From NCBI GenBank assembly GCA_029246985.1, contig JAQWMC010000018.1, forward strand, positions 1 through 59,050: a DNA stretch of 59,050 bases, in the 5' to 3' direction. This DNA comes from Pirellulales bacterium. GTDB taxonomy: Bacteria; Planctomycetota; Planctomycetia; Pirellulales; UBA1268. Position numbers and translations under genes: made by a program. Positions 2,728 through 58,505 of the stretch are shown piece by piece. The notes beneath the pieces are model-generated. The model did no database searches. It was not told the origin of the DNA and saw only the letters and a list, made by a program, of their open reading frames with translations. Every line of letters starts with the position of its first letter. Positions within the stretch are counted from its first letter, which is position 1.

Positions 2728-3668
2728 TTGTGATTGGTTTCCCGCTGAGTGCGTTGAGCTCGCTGAACATAAATCGATTGTCGTGCCGCCGTCGCAGAAA
2801 TTCTATCTCTTGTGGGTCCTTTTACGTATGAGCCGTCAGGGCTTTGCCCCCGGGTGGTTCGTGCGATGTCTTGAACCTGAGGGATCGCAGCGGCAACTGA
2901 CGCCGGCGGGGCAGGGCAACCACGCTTTACCCATTCAAGCCAAACGGTTTGCAGTTTACCAATATCATGAATGCCGTAATACTGACTCAACGACTCTGGC
3001 CAATCGCTGCTTGCTAAACCGTCACCGACGAAATGAATGTATCGTTTTCTGCCGCCTCGCTCTATCAGGTAGCGAGCAAGCGAGTAGCCCTGCGAATAGA
3101 GTGGAAGCACATCTGCCGGATATTCTTTCATAGCGAACATTTCGGGGAATGAAATCCCTCTGCCGGTCCGTAGAAACTCTATGAGTAGTCTGTGCTGCCG
3201 AGCTCGTTCTACTGGATGCTCTACGGTTGTGCAGGCGCCCTCATCGGCCCATCGTGGCAGCGGTTGACGAAAGTGGCTCGCGAAAATTGTGTGAGTGACC
3301 TCATGTGGGAGAACAGAGTCGAGAATCCGTTCTTCACTGCCTTGGATAGTCATTGTCCAGTTGAAGACTTCGCCTCTATCAAATACAAAACTTGTTGCAC
3401 CACCTGCTCCAAGTGTTGGGGCTACTTCTGCTGTTATCGGACACGGCTGACTCCACCGAGGAAGCGGTTGTCCGATCCATTCAATGGCGAGGTCGTGGCG
3501 ATACTGTTCGGCAGCATCTCCAATCTTCTGTGCTAACTGAGGGCTGGGGGCTTCAACAACAAAGTTTGCTGTTCGGTAGCCTGCTGCGAATAGAATATTG
3601 GCCGGTAGGATAAACAACGTTATCGCACCGATGAGAAAAAATCTTCTTTCGAGTTTTCCAAACTGCAT
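2724..3668 (-). CDS. Secreted putative gluzincin-type zinc metallopeptidase
   Basis: N-terminal signal-like segment (FFLIGAITLFILPANILFAAG). HEVTH (HExxH) is followed 16 residues later by WADEG, which resembles the M1-type WLNEG third-ligand motif. The family assignment is inference. Confidence 0.55.
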   Translation of the reverse strand: MQFGKLERRFFLIGAITLFILPANILFAAGYRTANFVVEAPSPQLAQKIGDAAEQYRHDLAIEWIGQPLPRWSQPCPITAEVAPTLGAGGATSFVFDRGEVFNWTMTIQGSEERILDSVLPHEVTHTIFASHFRQPLPRWADEGACTTVEHPVERARQHRLLIEFLRTGRGISFPEMFAMKEYPADVLPLYSQGYSLARYLIERGGRKRYIHFVGDGLASSDWPESLSQYYGIHDIGKLQTVWLEWVKRGCPAPPASVAAAIPQVQDIARTTRGQSPDGSYVKGPTRDRISATAARQSIYVQRAQRTQRETNHN

Positions 3669-53472: not shown

Positions 53473-54270
53473 TTATGAGTCTGCCATATCTGACTGTGTT
53501 TCCGCCACTGCTAACTCTTGAACCACGGAGGAAACCATTGTTGTGATCACGTTCTGCTGAGTGTTCCTGGATGAATCCAGTTGTGAGTTTTCCTGATGCA
53601 GACGGCTCGCAGGAAATCCCAGCGGAAGAGAATCGATAGAGGAATCGGGCCCATCTCGAAAAAGTGTGGAATCGATCGGTTTATAAATTGTTTTTGATCT
53701 CCGGAAGCCAAGACGCTGATAGAGCCTGATTGCAGCGATGTTTTCAGCTGTCACCTCAAGAGTGACGTGGCAGGCACCTGCGGCTTCAAAACCAGACAGT
53801 GCTTGTTCTATCAAGACGCTCCCCAGTCCACCGCCTCGTTGAGAGGGCACAATGCCAATATTCTGAATCGATCCAATTCCTGAACGATCCATGACGCCTT
53901 GAATGGTTCCACACCATTCAAGGGGAGCAAACTGGGTTTCATTGATTCCTCTGTAGCGATTAATTCGCCGGGCAATCAGCCAGGTAGCGTCGGGAAGGAA
54001 ACCGGGTTTTCTGCGAATTTCCTGCATCAGCCTCCGGCAGCCTGAAAGCTCACCGAGACACGGAAAGACCTGCGCATCAATTTCCTGACAGAAAGCTCGA
54101 TACTTCGTGCGGGCATGAACATCAAGAAGGGCCTCGTTCCATGGAACGAGTTGGTAGCCACCCGGCAGTGACGCCAGGGGTACGTACGATCTGGGAAGAT
54201 CGATGCCCATTCGGAATCGTTTGCAGTAACCCGAGTCCATGAGGAATAACCTCTCCCTTTGGAATGCCAT
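53473..54270 (-). CDS. GNAT family N-acetyltransferase
   Basis: Acetyl-CoA motif A: VPSQRGGGLGSVLIEQAL, followed by LYQRLGF. Confidence 0.8.
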   Translation of the reverse strand: MAFQRERLFLMDSGYCKRFRMGIDLPRSYVPLASLPGGYQLVPWNEALLDVHARTKYRAFCQEIDAQVFPCLGELSGCRRLMQEIRRKPGFLPDATWLIARRINRYRGINETQFAPLEWCGTIQGVMDRSGIGSIQNIGIVPSQRGGGLGSVLIEQALSGFEAAGACHVTLEVTAENIAAIRLYQRLGFRRSKTIYKPIDSTLFRDGPDSSIDSLPLGFPASRLHQENSQLDSSRNTQQNVITTMVSSVVQELAVAETQSDMADS

Positions 54271-54401
54271 AACACACTGTCTCTGAACCTAAGACTGCAT
54301 GATCTTTGCGTCAACGTGCTGGTTTCGAGAAGTCAATTTATCGCGTAAAACGATGCTGTGGGGCAAATTACGGTGATCAAGCGGATTATTCCGGTGTTCC
54401 T

Positions 54402-54414
54402 GTCAGATTCTGAC
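54402..54414. promoter_or_regulatory. 13-bp perfect palindrome GTCAGAtTCTGAC in the metal-ABC promoter region; candidate operator
   Basis: Read directly. It lies 78 nt upstream of ATG at 54492. The direct repeat TTTTTTGAG occurs at 54447-54455 and 54469-54477. Confidence 0.2.
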
Positions 54415-54491
54415 CAAAGCGCAGTCAACGCTTCAGTAGGATACACTTTTTTGAGTACCCAAAAATTGTTTTTTGAGAGGTCGAAAAAGAA

Positions 54492-55424
54492 ATGCCGCGA
54501 ATCGTCAACGTAGTCTTGGTTCTTTCTTTGGTTGGTGCCGCATGGAATAACTCAAAGGCAGCATCACCCGTCCGTGTAATTGCTACGACGACAGTCGTTG
54601 CCGATCTGGTAGAGCAGGTTGGGGGTGATCTGGTCGCGGTTGAAAGCCTCATGGCAGATGGGGTTGACCCTCATTCCTATCGTGCAACGCCGCGAGATAT
54701 CGACAGACTTATTCGTGCTGATCTGATTGTTGCCAACGGACTTCATCTGGAAGGAAAGCTGGCAGAACTTCTGGAGCGAATTGGTCGGAAACGTCCGTTT
54801 GTAGCAGTTGGCAATGCGGTTCCAAAAGATGAATTGCTTTCCATTGGGAATGATCTGTTTGATCCACACATATGGTTTGACGCCAAACTATGGAGTTATT
54901 GTCCATCTACGGTTGCTGATGCATTGTCTCAACTCGATTCCAAGGCTGCACTGCACTACCGGCAGCGTGCTGAAAAGTATTCCAAAGACCTTTTGGAACT
55001 CGATAAGAATGTGCGAAGAAAGTTCAAAAAGATTCCTCAGCAGCGTCGAGTCCTTATTACCGCCCACGATGCGTTTCGTTACTTTGGCCGGGCATACGGG
55101 CTTGAAGTCATTGGAGTTCAGGGAACGAGTACAGAAAGTGAAGCTGGTCTCGCTGACATGAATCAATTGGTTGAGTTAGTTGTTCAGCGCGAGATACCAG
55201 CAGTGTTCGTTGAGACGAGTGTGTCGGATCGAAATGTCACGGCATTAATAGAAGGTGCTGCCGCTCGCGGGCATAGTGTCCGTCTTGGTGGACGCTTATA
55301 CTCCGATGCATTGGGGCCTGCTGGAGGAGGTGGTGATACGCTTGAGGGTGCGTTACTTTCAAACGTTGACACAATTATTGGGGCACTCCGTGCGACGAGT
55401 ACCTCGCAGCGTATTGTGGAGTAG
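54492..55424 (+). CDS. Metal ABC transporter substrate-binding protein (TroA/ZnuA/MntC cluster A-I type)
   Basis: Signal peptide, then DPHSY, DPHIWFD and HDAFRYF motifs. No His-rich loop is present, so metal specificity is undetermined. Confidence 0.88.
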   Translation: MPRIVNVVLVLSLVGAAWNNSKAASPVRVIATTTVVADLVEQVGGDLVAVESLMADGVDPHSYRATPRDIDRLIRADLIVANGLHLEGKLAELLERIGRKRPFVAVGNAVPKDELLSIGNDLFDPHIWFDAKLWSYCPSTVADALSQLDSKAALHYRQRAEKYSKDLLELDKNVRRKFKKIPQQRRVLITAHDAFRYFGRAYGLEVIGVQGTSTESEAGLADMNQLVELVVQREIPAVFVETSVSDRNVTALIEGAAARGHSVRLGGRLYSDALGPAGGGGDTLEGALLSNVDTIIGALRATSTSQRIVE

Positions 55425-55471: not shown

Positions 55472-56272
55472 ATGGCTGGAAATAACTCTGCTCGAGAGGT
55501 GCATGTCGCTCATCCAATGCTGGAGTGGCATGATCTCACGGTTGCATATGGGCGTCGTCCAGTTTTATGGAACGTGGACTTTGAAATACAAGACCCCTGT
55601 CTCTTCGGAATTATTGGGCCAAATGGTGCAGGGAAGAGCACGCTGCTCAAGGCAAGTTTGGATCTTGTGCGAAGAGCTGGTGGAACCGTGCGGTTTTGGG
55701 GGCAACAGCTTGCTGAAGTTCGTTCAAAAATCGCGTATGTTCCCCAGCGAGAGACAGTTGATTGGGACTTTCCAGTCAGCGTAATGGATGTTGTCCGTAT
55801 GGGTGCGACATCAAGACTTGGCTGGTTTCAACGGGGTGGGAAACGTGAGCGTGAGTTGGCTCGTGCAAGTCTTGATCACGTCGGTCTTGCGGATTTTGCA
55901 AATCGACAAATAGGGAAACTCTCTGGAGGGCAGCAGCAGCGTGTCTTTTTAGCTCGAGCACTTGCTCGCGAGGCCGAGATTTATCTCCTCGATGAGCCGA
56001 TGGCAGGTGTCGACGCTGGCTCGCAGGAGCAGATATTCAACATTCTTGCCGAACTGCGGGATCAGGGAAAATTAGTTATTGCTGTGCATCACGATATACG
56101 TACGGCGGCGGAATGGTTTGATGCAGTTGCTCTTGTTGATATGCGTCTTGTTGCAGCCGGGCCAACGGCTGAGGTGCTTACGCCGGAAAATCTGACGATG
56201 ACATATTCTGGTCGCCTCAGCATTCTTGATGAAATTGGAGAAGCAGTGGAGCGGGGAGGAAGGACACCATGA
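55472..56272 (+). CDS. Metal ABC transporter ATP-binding protein
   Basis: Walker A GPNGAGKST, signature LSGGQQQRV, Walker B IYLLDEP. Confidence 0.9.
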   Translation: MAGNNSAREVHVAHPMLEWHDLTVAYGRRPVLWNVDFEIQDPCLFGIIGPNGAGKSTLLKASLDLVRRAGGTVRFWGQQLAEVRSKIAYVPQRETVDWDFPVSVMDVVRMGATSRLGWFQRGGKRERELARASLDHVGLADFANRQIGKLSGGQQQRVFLARALAREAEIYLLDEPMAGVDAGSQEQIFNILAELRDQGKLVIAVHHDIRTAAEWFDAVALVDMRLVAAGPTAEVLTPENLTMTYSGRLSILDEIGEAVERGGRTP

Positions 56273-57216
56273 TCCACCTAGCCGTCGCTATTGCATTCCT
56301 TCCATACAACACCCTTGTTGTTGCTGCTGGTGTTGCAGCGGTCGGGTGTGCTGCTGGCGTGATTGGTACGTTTGGCGTTCTGAGAAAGAGAGCGCTTGTC
56401 GGTGATGCTGCAGCACATGCTACGCTTGTGGGAGTTGCATGCGCCTTACTCTTAACAGGACAGCGTGATCTCGCTGTGCTTCTTGTCGGTGGCCTGCTCT
56501 CAGCAATGGTCGCTATTGTTCTTCTGGTTCTTATTCGAAAGTTCACTCGTACACGTGATGATGCAGCGACTGCGATTGTCTTGAGTGTGTCATTTGGCCT
56601 GGGCATTACACTGATTTCGGGAATGGTGAGTCGCGGAATTCCTGGAAGTGGTGGCTTGGAGCGATTCTTGCTTGGGCACACGGCATCGCTGACAGCCACT
56701 GATGCACTATTACTCGGAACTGTTTCAGTTGTCGGTGTTTTGTGCATCGTGGTCGGTTTAAAGGAAGCAACAATGGTTGCGTTCGATCCAGATTTTGCCG
56801 CGGCCGCCGGATGGCCTGCAGCGACACTAGATCTTGTGCTCATCGCTCTTATTGCGGTGATGGTTGTTGTTGGACTGCCAGCAGCCGGTGCAGTCTTGGT
56901 TACGGCGCTTGTGGTCATTCCTCCGGCTGTTGCAAGGCAATGGACGGAACGTCTTGTTCCCATGCTTGTCATTGCCGGGGCAGTCGGATTACTCAGCGCT
57001 CTGGGGGGAGTTGTCCTAAGTAGCCTCGCTGTCCAGGTGCCAACAGGCCCGGTTGTCGTTCTCGTGGCAACAGCATTTTTAATCCTTTCGATTCTCGTAG
57101 CACCGTGTCGAGGGATACTGTGGCGGACGCGATCAGTGAGTGGATTATCCTCTGTATCCCTCACGAAAACAGAAGTCGGCGCAGCCACTCCTCGGGTAAT
57201 GGAGCGAAAGCTGTGA
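56269..57216 (+). CDS. Metal ABC transporter permease (ABC-3 family)
   Basis: Polytopic, Ala/Val/Gly-rich. It has an ATGA overlap with the ATPase gene and a GTGA overlap with the next permease gene. Confidence 0.88.
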   Translation: MIHLAVAIAFLPYNTLVVAAGVAAVGCAAGVIGTFGVLRKRALVGDAAAHATLVGVACALLLTGQRDLAVLLVGGLLSAMVAIVLLVLIRKFTRTRDDAATAIVLSVSFGLGITLISGMVSRGIPGSGGLERFLLGHTASLTATDALLLGTVSVVGVLCIVVGLKEATMVAFDPDFAAAAGWPAATLDLVLIALIAVMVVVGLPAAGAVLVTALVVIPPAVARQWTERLVPMLVIAGAVGLLSALGGVVLSSLAVQVPTGPVVVLVATAFLILSILVAPCRGILWRTRSVSGLSSVSLTKTEVGAATPRVMERKL

Positions 57217-58505
57217 CGACTCTGACGGCTAACGCTACGTTGATATCCTGGTTGGATTCCATTGGGCCGTTGCACGGATGGGCGATTGCTACAGCAGCGA
57301 TTGTTTCTGCGTGCTGCGCAATTGTAGGCACACCCCTGGTTGTCCGTCGCATGAGCTTGCTGGGAGATGCAATCAGCCATGCTGTTCTTCCTGGGCTTGT
57401 CGTGGCAGTGCTCCTTGGGGCTCAGCCGGGTGGTATTGGTGTACTAATTGGCGCAACGGTAGCAGCAATGGTGACGGTCTGGTTCACTCGATTTCTGTAT
57501 CGCCAGGCAGGACTGTGGGAGGATGCAAGTGTTGGGGTCTCTTTTACAACGCTGTTCGCTGCGGGAGTTCTTCTGGTTACTCTGTCTGGTTCACGCGTTG
57601 ATCTTGATCCAGGCTGTGTGCTCTACGGCATTCTTGAACTGGTGCCTTTTGATACCGTGGATGTGTACGGGTGGGATATTCCAAGGGCTTTTCTGTCCGC
57701 GTCGTTCGTGTTGCTGATCGTGAGTGCTGGCATGTGGTGCACATGGCGCTGGCAGCTCTTCACTGCCTTTGATTATGATGCTGCCAAAGCTGCTGGTGTG
57801 CCAACTGTTGCAGTGACCATGGGTCTCTTAGTAGGCGTCTCACTGGCCACAGTAGCCGGCTTTGTGGCTGTCGGCGCTATTCTTGTTGTTGCGATGCTTG
57901 TGGTGCCTGCTGCAGCTGCCGAACGGTTGGTGCATAGACTTCATCATGCAGTGTGGTTAGCAGTTGTGATCGCTGTGGTTGGTGCTGTTGGGGGCTATCT
58001 GCTTGCGTGGAGACTCGGGACGTCTGCCGCTGGCATGATGGCGGTTGTATTGGGAGTTGAATACGTCATCGCCATCCTTGTTGCTCCTGATGATGGAGTC
58101 GTAGCTCGCTTGATTTCGAAGCTTGTCTACCTCTGGCGAGTGCAATGTGAAGATCGATTGGCCTCACTTTGGAGAGCAGAAGAATCAGGGCAGGCGAGAC
58201 ACGAAGACACATTTGGTGGGCTAGTGAATCGATGGTTGTGTGTGAATGGGCAGGTGCGAAAACAGGAGAACGGTCTTGTTCTGACTCCACAGGGGCGATT
58301 GAATGCGGAGGTCATTGTGCGGTCTCATCGGTTATGGGAAACCTGGCTTGGAAGGCACGTGGATTTACCAGTCGATCACCTTCACCCGCCGGCAGAGTGG
58401 ATTGAGCATCATCTTGGAGAACAAGTTCGGAAACGCATTGAGAATGAGCTTGGAAACGAAGACGTCGACCCGCACGGAAGCGTTATTCCGCGGGAAAAAA
58501 AGTAA
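57213..58505 (+). CDS. Metal ABC transporter permease fused to a C-terminal DtxR/MntR/TroR-like metal-sensing domain
   Basis: An ABC-3 permease body of about 296 aa runs from GTG at 57213. A ~134-aa extension (58101-58502) follows, carrying the DtxR-like motifs NGLVLTPQGR, SHRLWETWL, HPPAEWIEHH and DPHGSVIP. Confidence 0.85.
   Translation: MTTLTANATLISWLDSIGPLHGWAIATAAIVSACCAIVGTPLVVRRMSLLGDAISHAVLPGLVVAVLLGAQPGGIGVLIGATVAAMVTVWFTRFLYRQAGLWEDASVGVSFTTLFAAGVLLVTLSGSRVDLDPGCVLYGILELVPFDTVDVYGWDIPRAFLSASFVLLIVSAGMWCTWRWQLFTAFDYDAAKAAGVPTVAVTMGLLVGVSLATVAGFVAVGAILVVAMLVVPAAAAERLVHRLHHAVWLAVVIAVVGAVGGYLLAWRLGTSAAGMMAVVLGVEYVIAILVAPDDGVVARLISKLVYLWRVQCEDRLASLWRAEESGQARHEDTFGGLVNRWLCVNGQVRKQENGLVLTPQGRLNAEVIVRSHRLWETWLGRHVDLPVDHLHPPAEWIEHHLGEQVRKRIENELGNEDVDPHGSVIPREKK

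Follow-up and report, generated by a model that had tools for sequence, protein, structure and literature searches.

A DtxR-family metal-binding module with a shortened DNA-binding half, fused to the second permease of a tro-type operon in a Pirellulales bacterium

The window analysed here, the whole 59,050-nucleotide stretch of DNA from a Pirellulales bacterium (contig JAQWMC010000018.1), carries an operon for an ABC-type metal importer in which the second of two ABC-3 permeases is fused, in a single open reading frame (ORF), to a genuine DtxR-family module. The metal-binding domain of this module (domain 2) is complete and extremely constrained, its DNA-binding half is degraded, and the operator boxes in front of the operon are invariant in the same loci. 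Structure predictions give the module a DtxR-like overall fold with a gap at helix alpha2 of the helix-turn-helix (HTH), so that its DNA-binding half appears to be truncated. On these grounds it is proposed that the tail is a tethered cytoplasmic metal sensor and that the boxes are read by a canonical TroR-like repressor encoded elsewhere, a reading that we consider credible and just short of probable. With it go the inferences that the tail stays attached to the permease and does not read DNA, that its metal binding alters transport and that this genome encodes a free repressor.

The reading frame extends from 57105 to 58505 on the forward strand with no internal stop. The start codon is likely the GTG at 57213; it shares bases with the TGA that ends permease 1 (GTGA) and yields a protein of 430 amino acids, equal in length to the closest homologues (P0001-P0004); with this start, residues 297-430 correspond to 58101-58502 (58505 including the stop codon). 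An earlier note on this DNA, made from the letters alone, had described a permease that continues past its final transmembrane segment into a tail of about 134 residues, and the single continuous frame bears this out. The ABC-3 model (PF00950) matches residues 23-290 of permease 2 (Pfam, E 4.7e-39), and Fe_dep_repr_C (PF02742) matches residues 358-427 over all 70 model positions (E 2.2e-18; 66.5 bits, cut-off 27). The note had named two Pfam models as a check on the tail, and only Fe_dep_repr_C was found, at full length; the N-terminal DtxR DNA-binding model Fe_dep_repress (PF01325) has no match in the 430-residue protein even at E<=1. Matches to the NCBIfam MntR and DtxR models are confined to residues ~352-428.

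A scan limited to one genome per species returned 75 related loci, all from Planctomycetota metagenome-assembled genomes (MAGs; Planctomycetaceae and Pirellulales) save a few records titled Candidatus Kuenenia, Chitinophagaceae and Chitinophaga, which are taken to be mislabelled bins. The nearest loci, 90-97% identical, come from Planctomycetaceae and Pirellulales MAGs, in keeping with the planctomycete-like character of the genome already noticed from the sequence. The permease 2 core and the tail are contiguous in one frame in all 75 genomes, and the gene order binding protein, ATPase, permease 1, permease 2 core and tail is found wherever the flank is long enough. A frameshift or a separate gene, the alternative that had been raised to a continuous fusion, is ruled out by the continuous ORF and by this common frame. 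The position of the tail on the second permease, likewise pointed out earlier, is shared by the window and 54 of 54 complete related loci.

The tail had been assigned to the DtxR family by eye, an assignment upheld by the PF02742 match, by PDB sequence matches and by structural superposition. Searches with phmmer against PDB sequences returned DR2539 (1e-11), the Mn-dependent, M. tuberculosis-type regulator 5zr4 (7e-11), SloR, IdeR and DtxR (E 1e-11 to 1e-5), and Foldseek superposed the tail model on the two-domain structures of DR2539, IdeR, DtxR and SloR (template modelling score, TM, 0.65-0.73; root-mean-square deviation 2.3-3.9 Å; ~128 columns). HMMER alignment to IdeR and DtxR places H372, E376, H391, E395, E398 and H399 at the positions of DtxR H79, E83, H98, C102, E105 and H106, and motif spacing puts D314 at the position of DtxR M10 and MntR D8. 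The same alignments reproduced the pairings first made by eye for the wing (NGLVLTPQGR), for SHRLWETWL with KHRLAERLL, in which the H79 and E83 equivalents are present, and for HPPAEWIEH with HAEACRWEH, in which Glu occupies the C102 position. The proposed helix-1 match, EDRLASLWRAEESG, stands in part: it fits a family-wide motif and the structural superposition, but profile-profile alignment does not recover it.

When the query is aligned with 112 full-length orthologues that are 50-97% identical (113 sequences), D314 and the six domain-2 ligand equivalents are invariant, as are E313, H382, D388, H389, H400 and the DPHG motif (419-422, including H421); invariant positions number ~50 altogether. 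The tether/alpha1 helix contributes W308-R-V-x-C-E313-D314 and W320-R321 to this set, and the invariant W308, R309, V310, C312, W320 and R321 on it suggest, from sequence conservation, a docking surface by the membrane. Pairwise ratios of non-synonymous to synonymous substitution rates (dN/dS) between the window and eight close loci are 0.04-0.12 for the permease core, 0-0.19 for the tether and helix 1, 0.17-0.21 for the loop, helix and hairpin that follow and 0.00-0.06 for the Fe_dep_repr_C domain. Given these low ratios and the conservation in one frame, the tail is neither a sequencing artefact nor a decaying relic. Domain 2 of the tail is 36-40% identical to domain 2 of free regulators.

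The DNA-binding half was examined with two AlphaFold2 models, one of the tail with the 113-sequence alignment (mean predicted local distance difference test, pLDDT, 70.8) and one of the full protein (pLDDT 76.7), which agree in secondary structure. A PDDG turn after the last membrane helix leads into one continuous helix (296-325), followed by a loop (326-332), a 12-residue alpha3-like helix (333-344), a beta-hairpin (348-357) and then the long domain-2 helix. The question of whether a complete winged HTH exists, which the earlier note had left to structure prediction, is answered in the negative, helix alpha2 being absent from both models. The alpha3-like helix and the wing are predicted at pLDDT ~80-85 and superpose on DtxR-family DNA-binding domains. 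Spacing between motifs tells of the same shortening: the ED motif of helix 1 is separated from the H79 equivalent by 58 residues here and by 69 in DtxR and B. subtilis MntR, a difference of 11 that substantiates the shortfall of about 10 residues counted by eye between helix 1 and the wing. Among orthologues the stretch from helix 1 to the remaining helix is rich in Ala, Gly and Pro and of variable length (spacing 58-65), and in the clade of the window the exposed alpha3 positions vary. When 25 tails were compared with 11 canonical free-standing regulators in hhalign, residues ~351-429 alone were aligned (probability 98.9%, 38% identity), with no alignment N-terminal of the wing. Since no complete winged HTH emerges from PF01325, hhalign or AlphaFold, the module lacks the complete winged HTH, three helices with a wing, that marks a DtxR or YtgR repressor.

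A collinear phmmer alignment to 5zr4 (tail residues 12-130) could be taken for a complete winged HTH, a possibility not supported by the motif spacing, by hhalign or by the AlphaFold secondary structure. Net charge over alpha2, alpha3 and the wing was also tried as a proxy for DNA binding and is not discriminating (+3.0 in the clade of the window, +4.4 in free regulators and +2.6 in other tails). The missing PF01325 match is on its own a weak argument against DNA binding, because verrucomicrobial first-permease tails of normal length also lack it.

The locus is a tro-type operon, as indicated by an operator core equal to that of TroR operators and by a binding protein closest to TroA. The best solved match of the binding protein is T. 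pallidum TroA (1toa; E 1.5e-76, 260 bits), with the next family at 158 bits, and the gene order is that of a tro operon, namely a TroA-like cluster A-I binding protein, one ATPase and two ABC-3 permeases. The box core TTTGA-N4-TCAAA is the core of the published TroR operators (PMC2628430), for which the promoter oligonucleotides of Brett et al. 2008 give ATTTTGATATATCAAAAT in T. denticola and CTTTGATGCATCAAAAT in T. pallidum (PMC2628430, Table 2). Two copies of TTTTG(R)-N4-(Y)CAAA(A) occupy the same place in 53 of 54 related loci, and their 22-bp register is invariant across the 53; elsewhere, a loose box pattern was encountered 16 times on the plus strand of the remaining 550 kb of related loci. 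A regulon search for further TroR boxes in the 59-kb window found them at chance level only. The promoter region 54271-54491, which the earlier note had named, contains both TroR-type boxes, and the tro-type operon had not been recognised there. In most related loci the first box is directly preceded by a TAnnnT hexamer; TACACT in the window is a candidate -10 element by its position, as a sigma-70 promoter and terminator scan of 54200-54520 had no match and hence gave no full promoter.

The features of the operon and of the fused module are collected in Table 1.

Table 1. Coordinates of the tro-type operon, its putative control elements and the parts of the fused protein in the window
Feature	Position	Strand	Basis and remarks
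-10-like hexamer TACACT	54442..54447	+	Read from sequence; directly upstream of box 1
Operator box 1, TTTTGAGTACCCAAAA	54449..54464	.	TTTGA-N4-TCAAA with one mismatch; putative TroR-type
Operator box 2, TTTTGAGAGGTCGAAAA	54471..54487	.	Imperfect palindrome; starts 22 bp after the start of box 1
TroA-like periplasmic metal-binding protein	54492..55424	+	PF01297, Pfam E 3e-72
ABC ATPase (TroB-like)	55472..56272	+	PF00005, E 4.8e-27; stop overlaps permease 1 start by 4 nt
Permease 1 (ABC-3, 315 aa), without DtxR-like tail	56269..57216	+	PF00950, E 1.9e-51
Permease 2 core (ABC-3, aa 1-292)	57213..58088	+	PF00950, E 4.7e-39; AlphaFold transmembrane helices up to aa 290
30-residue helix, aa 296-325 (tether and DtxR helix alpha1)	58098..58187	+	AlphaFold, both models; conservation
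Shortened DNA-binding subdomain, aa 326-357	58188..58283	+	AlphaFold; no PF01325 or hhalign match; dN/dS 0.17-0.21
Fe_dep_repr_C metal-binding/dimerisation domain, aa 358-430	58284..58502	+	Pfam, phmmer, Foldseek TM 0.65-0.73, dN/dS 0.00-0.06

Structures of ZnuA, PsaA and MntC score at most 158 bits against the binding protein, which by eye has His where PsaA has Glu and no His-rich loop. Permease 1 continues for ~35 residues after the AP-RG junction. The four-base start/stop overlaps at 56269-56272 (by coordinates) and 57213-57216 (GTGA, read from the sequence) suggest translational coupling of the ATPase, permease 1 and permease 2 genes. A motif, GGTCAACGCGCCGGT, followed by an ATTGC-like element, lies ~50-70 nt upstream of the -10-like hexamer and recurs in loci whose proteins share only ~60% identity (L017, L018, L019, L022, L023, L024, L029, L030, L032, L035, L036, L041, L044, L068, L072, L074 and L126); a weaker copy is found in the window near 54418-54430 (GCAGTCAACGC). 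It may represent a further regulatory site or part of the promoter.

The fusion is part of a much wider family. An exhaustive HMMER search with the tail recovered 2,466 representatives at E<=0.001 (297 at E<=1e-10); 48 of the best 150 matches are at least 400 residues long, nearly all with the match C-terminal to a permease-length N-terminal part. Every one of 47 diverse fusions scanned carries ABC-3 and PF02742, and none of them matches PF01325 at E<=0.01. In diverse fusions the ED motif most often lies 67-73 residues from the H79 equivalent, which is the canonical length, so that the clade of the window represents a shortened derivative. Another 80 loci came from a metagenome scan that used the family motif as its seed and gave over 595 matches altogether.

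A survey of which permease carries the tail, suggested at the outset, resolved three architectures: a tail on the second permease only, as in the clade of the window; tails on both permeases, seen in 24 of 36 analysable loci of distant relatives; and a tail on the first permease only, found in Verrucomicrobiota such as Rubritalea squalenifaciens. In the double-tailed loci examined, both permeases match ABC-3 and PF02742 in Pfam. The two tails are distinct paralogous types, the first-permease tail having the motif QNLLRA...NHRLWELYL...SHVDRDADEIEH...SPH and the second-permease tail ED.L..LYR.EE...HRLWE(S/T)YL...DHLH.PAE..EH...DPHG. In the clade of the window the permease 1 tail is deleted in most loci and is retained in ~17 as a 120-150-residue remnant without metal ligands.

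Tails on both permeases were noted in L077, L080-L087, L092, L093, L095, L101, L114, L118, L120, L129, L138, L141, L142, L144-L146, L149 and L153. The permease 1 remnant, which has the appearance of a winged-helix domain with a degenerate domain 2, belongs to a sister sub-clade (L048, L050, L054, L056-L059, L062-L066, L068, L026, L027, L046 and L069). In the locus of R. squalenifaciens DSM 18772 (L156, 3439-8246), which has the first-permease tail only, a porin-like gene (Phenol_MetA_deg) separates the binding-protein and ATPase genes, an ExbB/ExbD cluster follows downstream, and two tandem AATTAG(C/T)C-N3-4-GCTAAAT boxes upstream (3370-3435) represent a different operator class. At L117 (3063-5468) permease, permease and DtxR-like domain follow one another in a single ORF of ~800 residues (P0150, 806 aa), either a triple fusion or an assembly frameshift. 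Three proteins of 520-563 residues (P0230, P0240 and P0246) have sequence beyond DPHG that resembles an SH3/FeoA-like third domain, so that their tails would be full three-domain DtxR-like modules; a FeoA Pfam match was obtained in one of the 47 fusions scanned.

Information on which protein reads the boxes comes from the relatives. Of the 24 double-tailed loci whose upstream region could be used, 11 have a free-standing regulator gene beside the operon, and the three adjacent regulators scanned have the full DtxR/SirR/TroR architecture of PF01325, PF02742 and FeoA (PF01325 E 1e-10 to 1e-15). In five double-tailed loci (L078, L083, L084, L101 and L106) a TTTGA-N4-TCAAA box lies between a divergent canonical regulator gene and the binding-protein gene; the box classes in other loci are TTTGG-N4-CCAAA, TTAG...CTAA and GTAGC-N3-5-GCTAC. 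In the free regulators the recognition helix varies with box type, GTATSM accompanying TTTGA and GSV(T/S)DM accompanying TTTGG (small samples, one box call with a mismatch). Alpha3 of the tails does not track box type, the tails of L150 and L119 being nearly identical and their box classes different (again small samples), and in the clade of the window the exposed positions of the remaining helix vary where the boxes do not. Because the helix positions vary while the boxes stay the same, and because of the relation between regulator helix and box, a canonical TroR-like protein rather than the tail is indicated as the reader of the boxes. Canonical regulators with PF01325, PF02742 and FeoA are common in Planctomycetota, for example in Phycisphaerae.

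Under the proposed mechanism, the module would stay on the transporter and sense cytoplasmic metal. As imported Mn, Fe or Zn rises, metal would bridge helix alpha1 (D314) to E395, E398 and H399, with a second site formed by H372, E376 and H391; since helix 1 both carries D314 and continues the tether, such bridging would act mechanically on the permease. The closure would be relayed through the tether helix to the permease and transport would be damped, as a form of feedback or trans-inhibition. A different protein would govern operon transcription: a canonical three-domain TroR/DtxR-type repressor, with its gene at another site in the genome, that recognises the tandem boxes. Where both permeases are tailed, as in distant relatives, the two tails may pair like a DtxR dimer and clamp both permeases. 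The earlier note had left open whether the domain is a released repressor or a membrane-tethered sensor that no longer binds DNA, and it is the second alternative that the evidence favours.

Several points weigh against the tethered sensor. The 59-kb window contains no free-standing DtxR-family gene, nor do 54 related loci within 6 kb of their operons, so that near the TroR boxes the tail is the sole TroR-like sequence seen. Free regulators adjoin double-tailed operons only (11 of 24, against 0 of 12 second-permease-only loci); one reading of this is that the single tail does the job of the regulator. The region equivalent to the HTH is poorly conserved also in verrucomicrobial tails of normal length, and for this reason poor conservation there is in itself no proof that DNA binding has been lost. 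A clamp is weakened as a model where a single tail per transporter has no DtxR-type dimer partner within the complex. We know of no ABC-3 importer that is trans-inhibited, and a search of the literature for DtxR-like domains regulating ABC transport found nothing relevant. A fusion of troD with troR that kept its repressor function would be a natural origin of the protein, by analogy with Treponema, where troR directly follows troD (PMC2628430), and the only fusion studied, chlamydial YtgR, binds DNA according to a review (PMC5599777).

The chief alternative is an autorepressor of the YtgR/TroR kind, in which the tail is freed by proteolysis or internal translation initiation, or else acts while membrane-tethered, and a metal-bound homodimer on the tandem boxes shuts off its own operon. 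We regard this as possible though somewhat doubtful. YtgC-YtgR is its precedent (PMC5599777, PMC7755916), and a troD-troR fusion would arise naturally from the Treponema gene order troABCD-troR (PMC2628430). TroR boxes overlap the -10-like element, 53 of 54 loci preserve them, and no other regulator gene is close by. Operons with a single tail are never accompanied by an adjacent free regulator, and the tail has two domains, as does T. pallidum TroR. The alpha3-like helix and the wing, still predicted, superpose on DtxR-family DNA-binding domains, and at a dN/dS of ~0.2 the DNA-binding remnant is not neutral. However, helix alpha2 is absent and its region has no profile similarity to the regulators encoded beside the same type of box; the exposed alpha3 residues are not conserved whereas the operator is; and the alpha3 of the tail is unlike the GTATSM helix of TTTGA-box regulators. 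The junction, modelled as a short PDDG turn and a continuous helix, does not look like an obvious flexible or cleavable linker. Should the tail prove to be an ordinary autorepressor, it would add no more than one somewhat unusual example to a class of fusions known since 2011-2012.

A further possibility is that the tail sequesters a repressor by partner switching, heterodimerising with a free TroR-like monomer and holding it at the membrane, so that the state of the transporter or the local metal is coupled to transcription, in analogy with PtsG and Mlc. The dimerisation domain, 36-40% identical to its counterpart in free regulators, is highly constrained, and 11 loci combine tailed permeases with a free regulator. 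However, the logic of the direction of regulation does not resolve and no free regulator lies near the single-tail operons, which leaves this improbable. Another alternative is a metal acceptor, in which the domain, placed under the translocation exit, would bind the ion transiently and buffer it or pass it to cytoplasmic clients with no regulatory role. Its predicted position directly below the permease on a short rigid tether would suit such a hand-off, as would the invariant His, Asp and Glu residues beyond the six ligands (H382, D388, H389, H400 and H421). The remnant wing and alpha3 would then have no role; moreover, we know of the DtxR fold only as a sensor and of no precedent among cluster A-I importers, and the hand-off is accordingly judged very unlikely. 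The notion of an evolutionary relic, a former repressor domain decaying without present function, could cite the stepwise decay of the permease 1 tail (intact in distant relatives, ligand-less in the sister sub-clade, deleted here) and the shortened HTH of the permease 2 tail, but it is scarcely credible, being effectively refuted by the dN/dS values of domain 2 (0.00-0.06) and of the tether/alpha1 helix (0-0.19) and by the ~50 residues invariant over 113 sequences.

The tethered sensor would have consequences beyond this operon. How high-affinity Mn, Zn and Fe ABC importers are stopped fast, before transcription responds, is poorly understood, and a sensor wired to the permease would supply a fast brake. 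A broader proposal is that in bacteria of the Planctomycetes-Verrucomicrobia-Chlamydiae (PVC) superphylum the DtxR fold has been recruited away from DNA binding to control a transporter directly, a sensor of one or two tails gating import and a separate TroR/DtxR repressor handling transcription. We offer this as a conjecture that may well be wrong. If it is true, the window would represent the most reduced form, with one tail and helix alpha2 gone, the domain would be the first of its regulatory kind on the membrane subunit of a metal ABC importer, and YtgC-type fusions would have to be re-read for a role before or besides cleavage.

A permease-DtxR fusion outside Chlamydia is not in itself new. 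The earlier note was right that a non-chlamydial fusion exists here, but orthologous permease-repressor fusions had been reported in 11 bacterial phyla by Thompson et al. 2012, as cited in a review (PMC5599777), and JGI labels some relatives 'permease subunit/Mn-dependent DtxR family transcriptional regulator', where NCBI has plain permeases. In the literature searched, no description was found of placement on the second permease together with loss of alpha2, of the common double-tailed architecture with a separate canonical regulator, or of tandem TroR boxes in Planctomycetota.

Among known systems, the free-standing regulators DtxR, IdeR, MntR, SloR and DR2539 share with the tail the fold of domains 1 and 2 (Foldseek), PF02742 and the ligand positions, including the C102 position, occupied here by Glu. 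The tail differs from them in having no PF01325 match, no alpha2 and no SH3/FeoA domain, in being anchored in the membrane, and in that homodimerisation is not built in, as there is one copy per transporter. Trans-inhibition domains, such as the C2 domain of MetNI and that of ModBC, are cytoplasmic, belong to ATPase subunits, form a symmetric pair and have folds unrelated to DtxR. If the tethered-sensor model holds, the likeness to MetNI and ModBC would be one of mechanism, in that a domain attached to the transporter binds the substrate and throttles import, here by means of a single DtxR fold on a membrane subunit.

The closest free-standing analogue of the module is TroR. The Treponema tro system and the operon described here have in common a TroA-type binding protein, a gene order with a TroR-like module directly after the second permease, and the operator core TTTGA-N4-TCAAA, with a box that abuts the -10 region as in T. 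pallidum (PMC2628430). T. pallidum TroR also has two domains without an SH3-like domain, and Glu at the C102 position is shared with TroR. However, TroR is a separate soluble protein with a complete winged HTH, whereas the module is fused to a permease and lacks alpha2; the M10 position is Asn in TroR (PMC2628430) and Asp here; Treponema has one box and the window two in tandem; and, at variance with tro-type operons, no separate troR gene is found in the window or in the flanks of 54 related loci.

The YtgC-YtgR protein of Chlamydia trachomatis (CT069, YtgCR), compared by description only, likewise combines an ABC-3 permease with a C-terminal DtxR-like domain in a single ORF, and its operon also encodes a binding protein, an ATPase and a second permease. 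It too conserves the DtxR metal ligands, has an operator-like palindrome at its own promoter and belongs to the PVC superphylum. A search started from a low-GC fusion of the first-permease type gave matches in Verrucomicrobiota and none in Chlamydiae. The fusion is on the first permease in Chlamydia (ytgC preceding ytgD) and on the second here, and YtgR has a DtxR-like HTH, binds DNA and is cleaved, as far as the literature describes it (PMC5599777), whereas alpha2 is missing here. The family thus offers a natural series, from operons with both permeases tailed and a separate repressor, through those with one permease tailed, to a single tail with a truncated DNA-binding half. This series makes the question of repressor, transport regulator or both directly testable, and it bears on the chlamydial YtgC-YtgR model, the sole member of the class studied.

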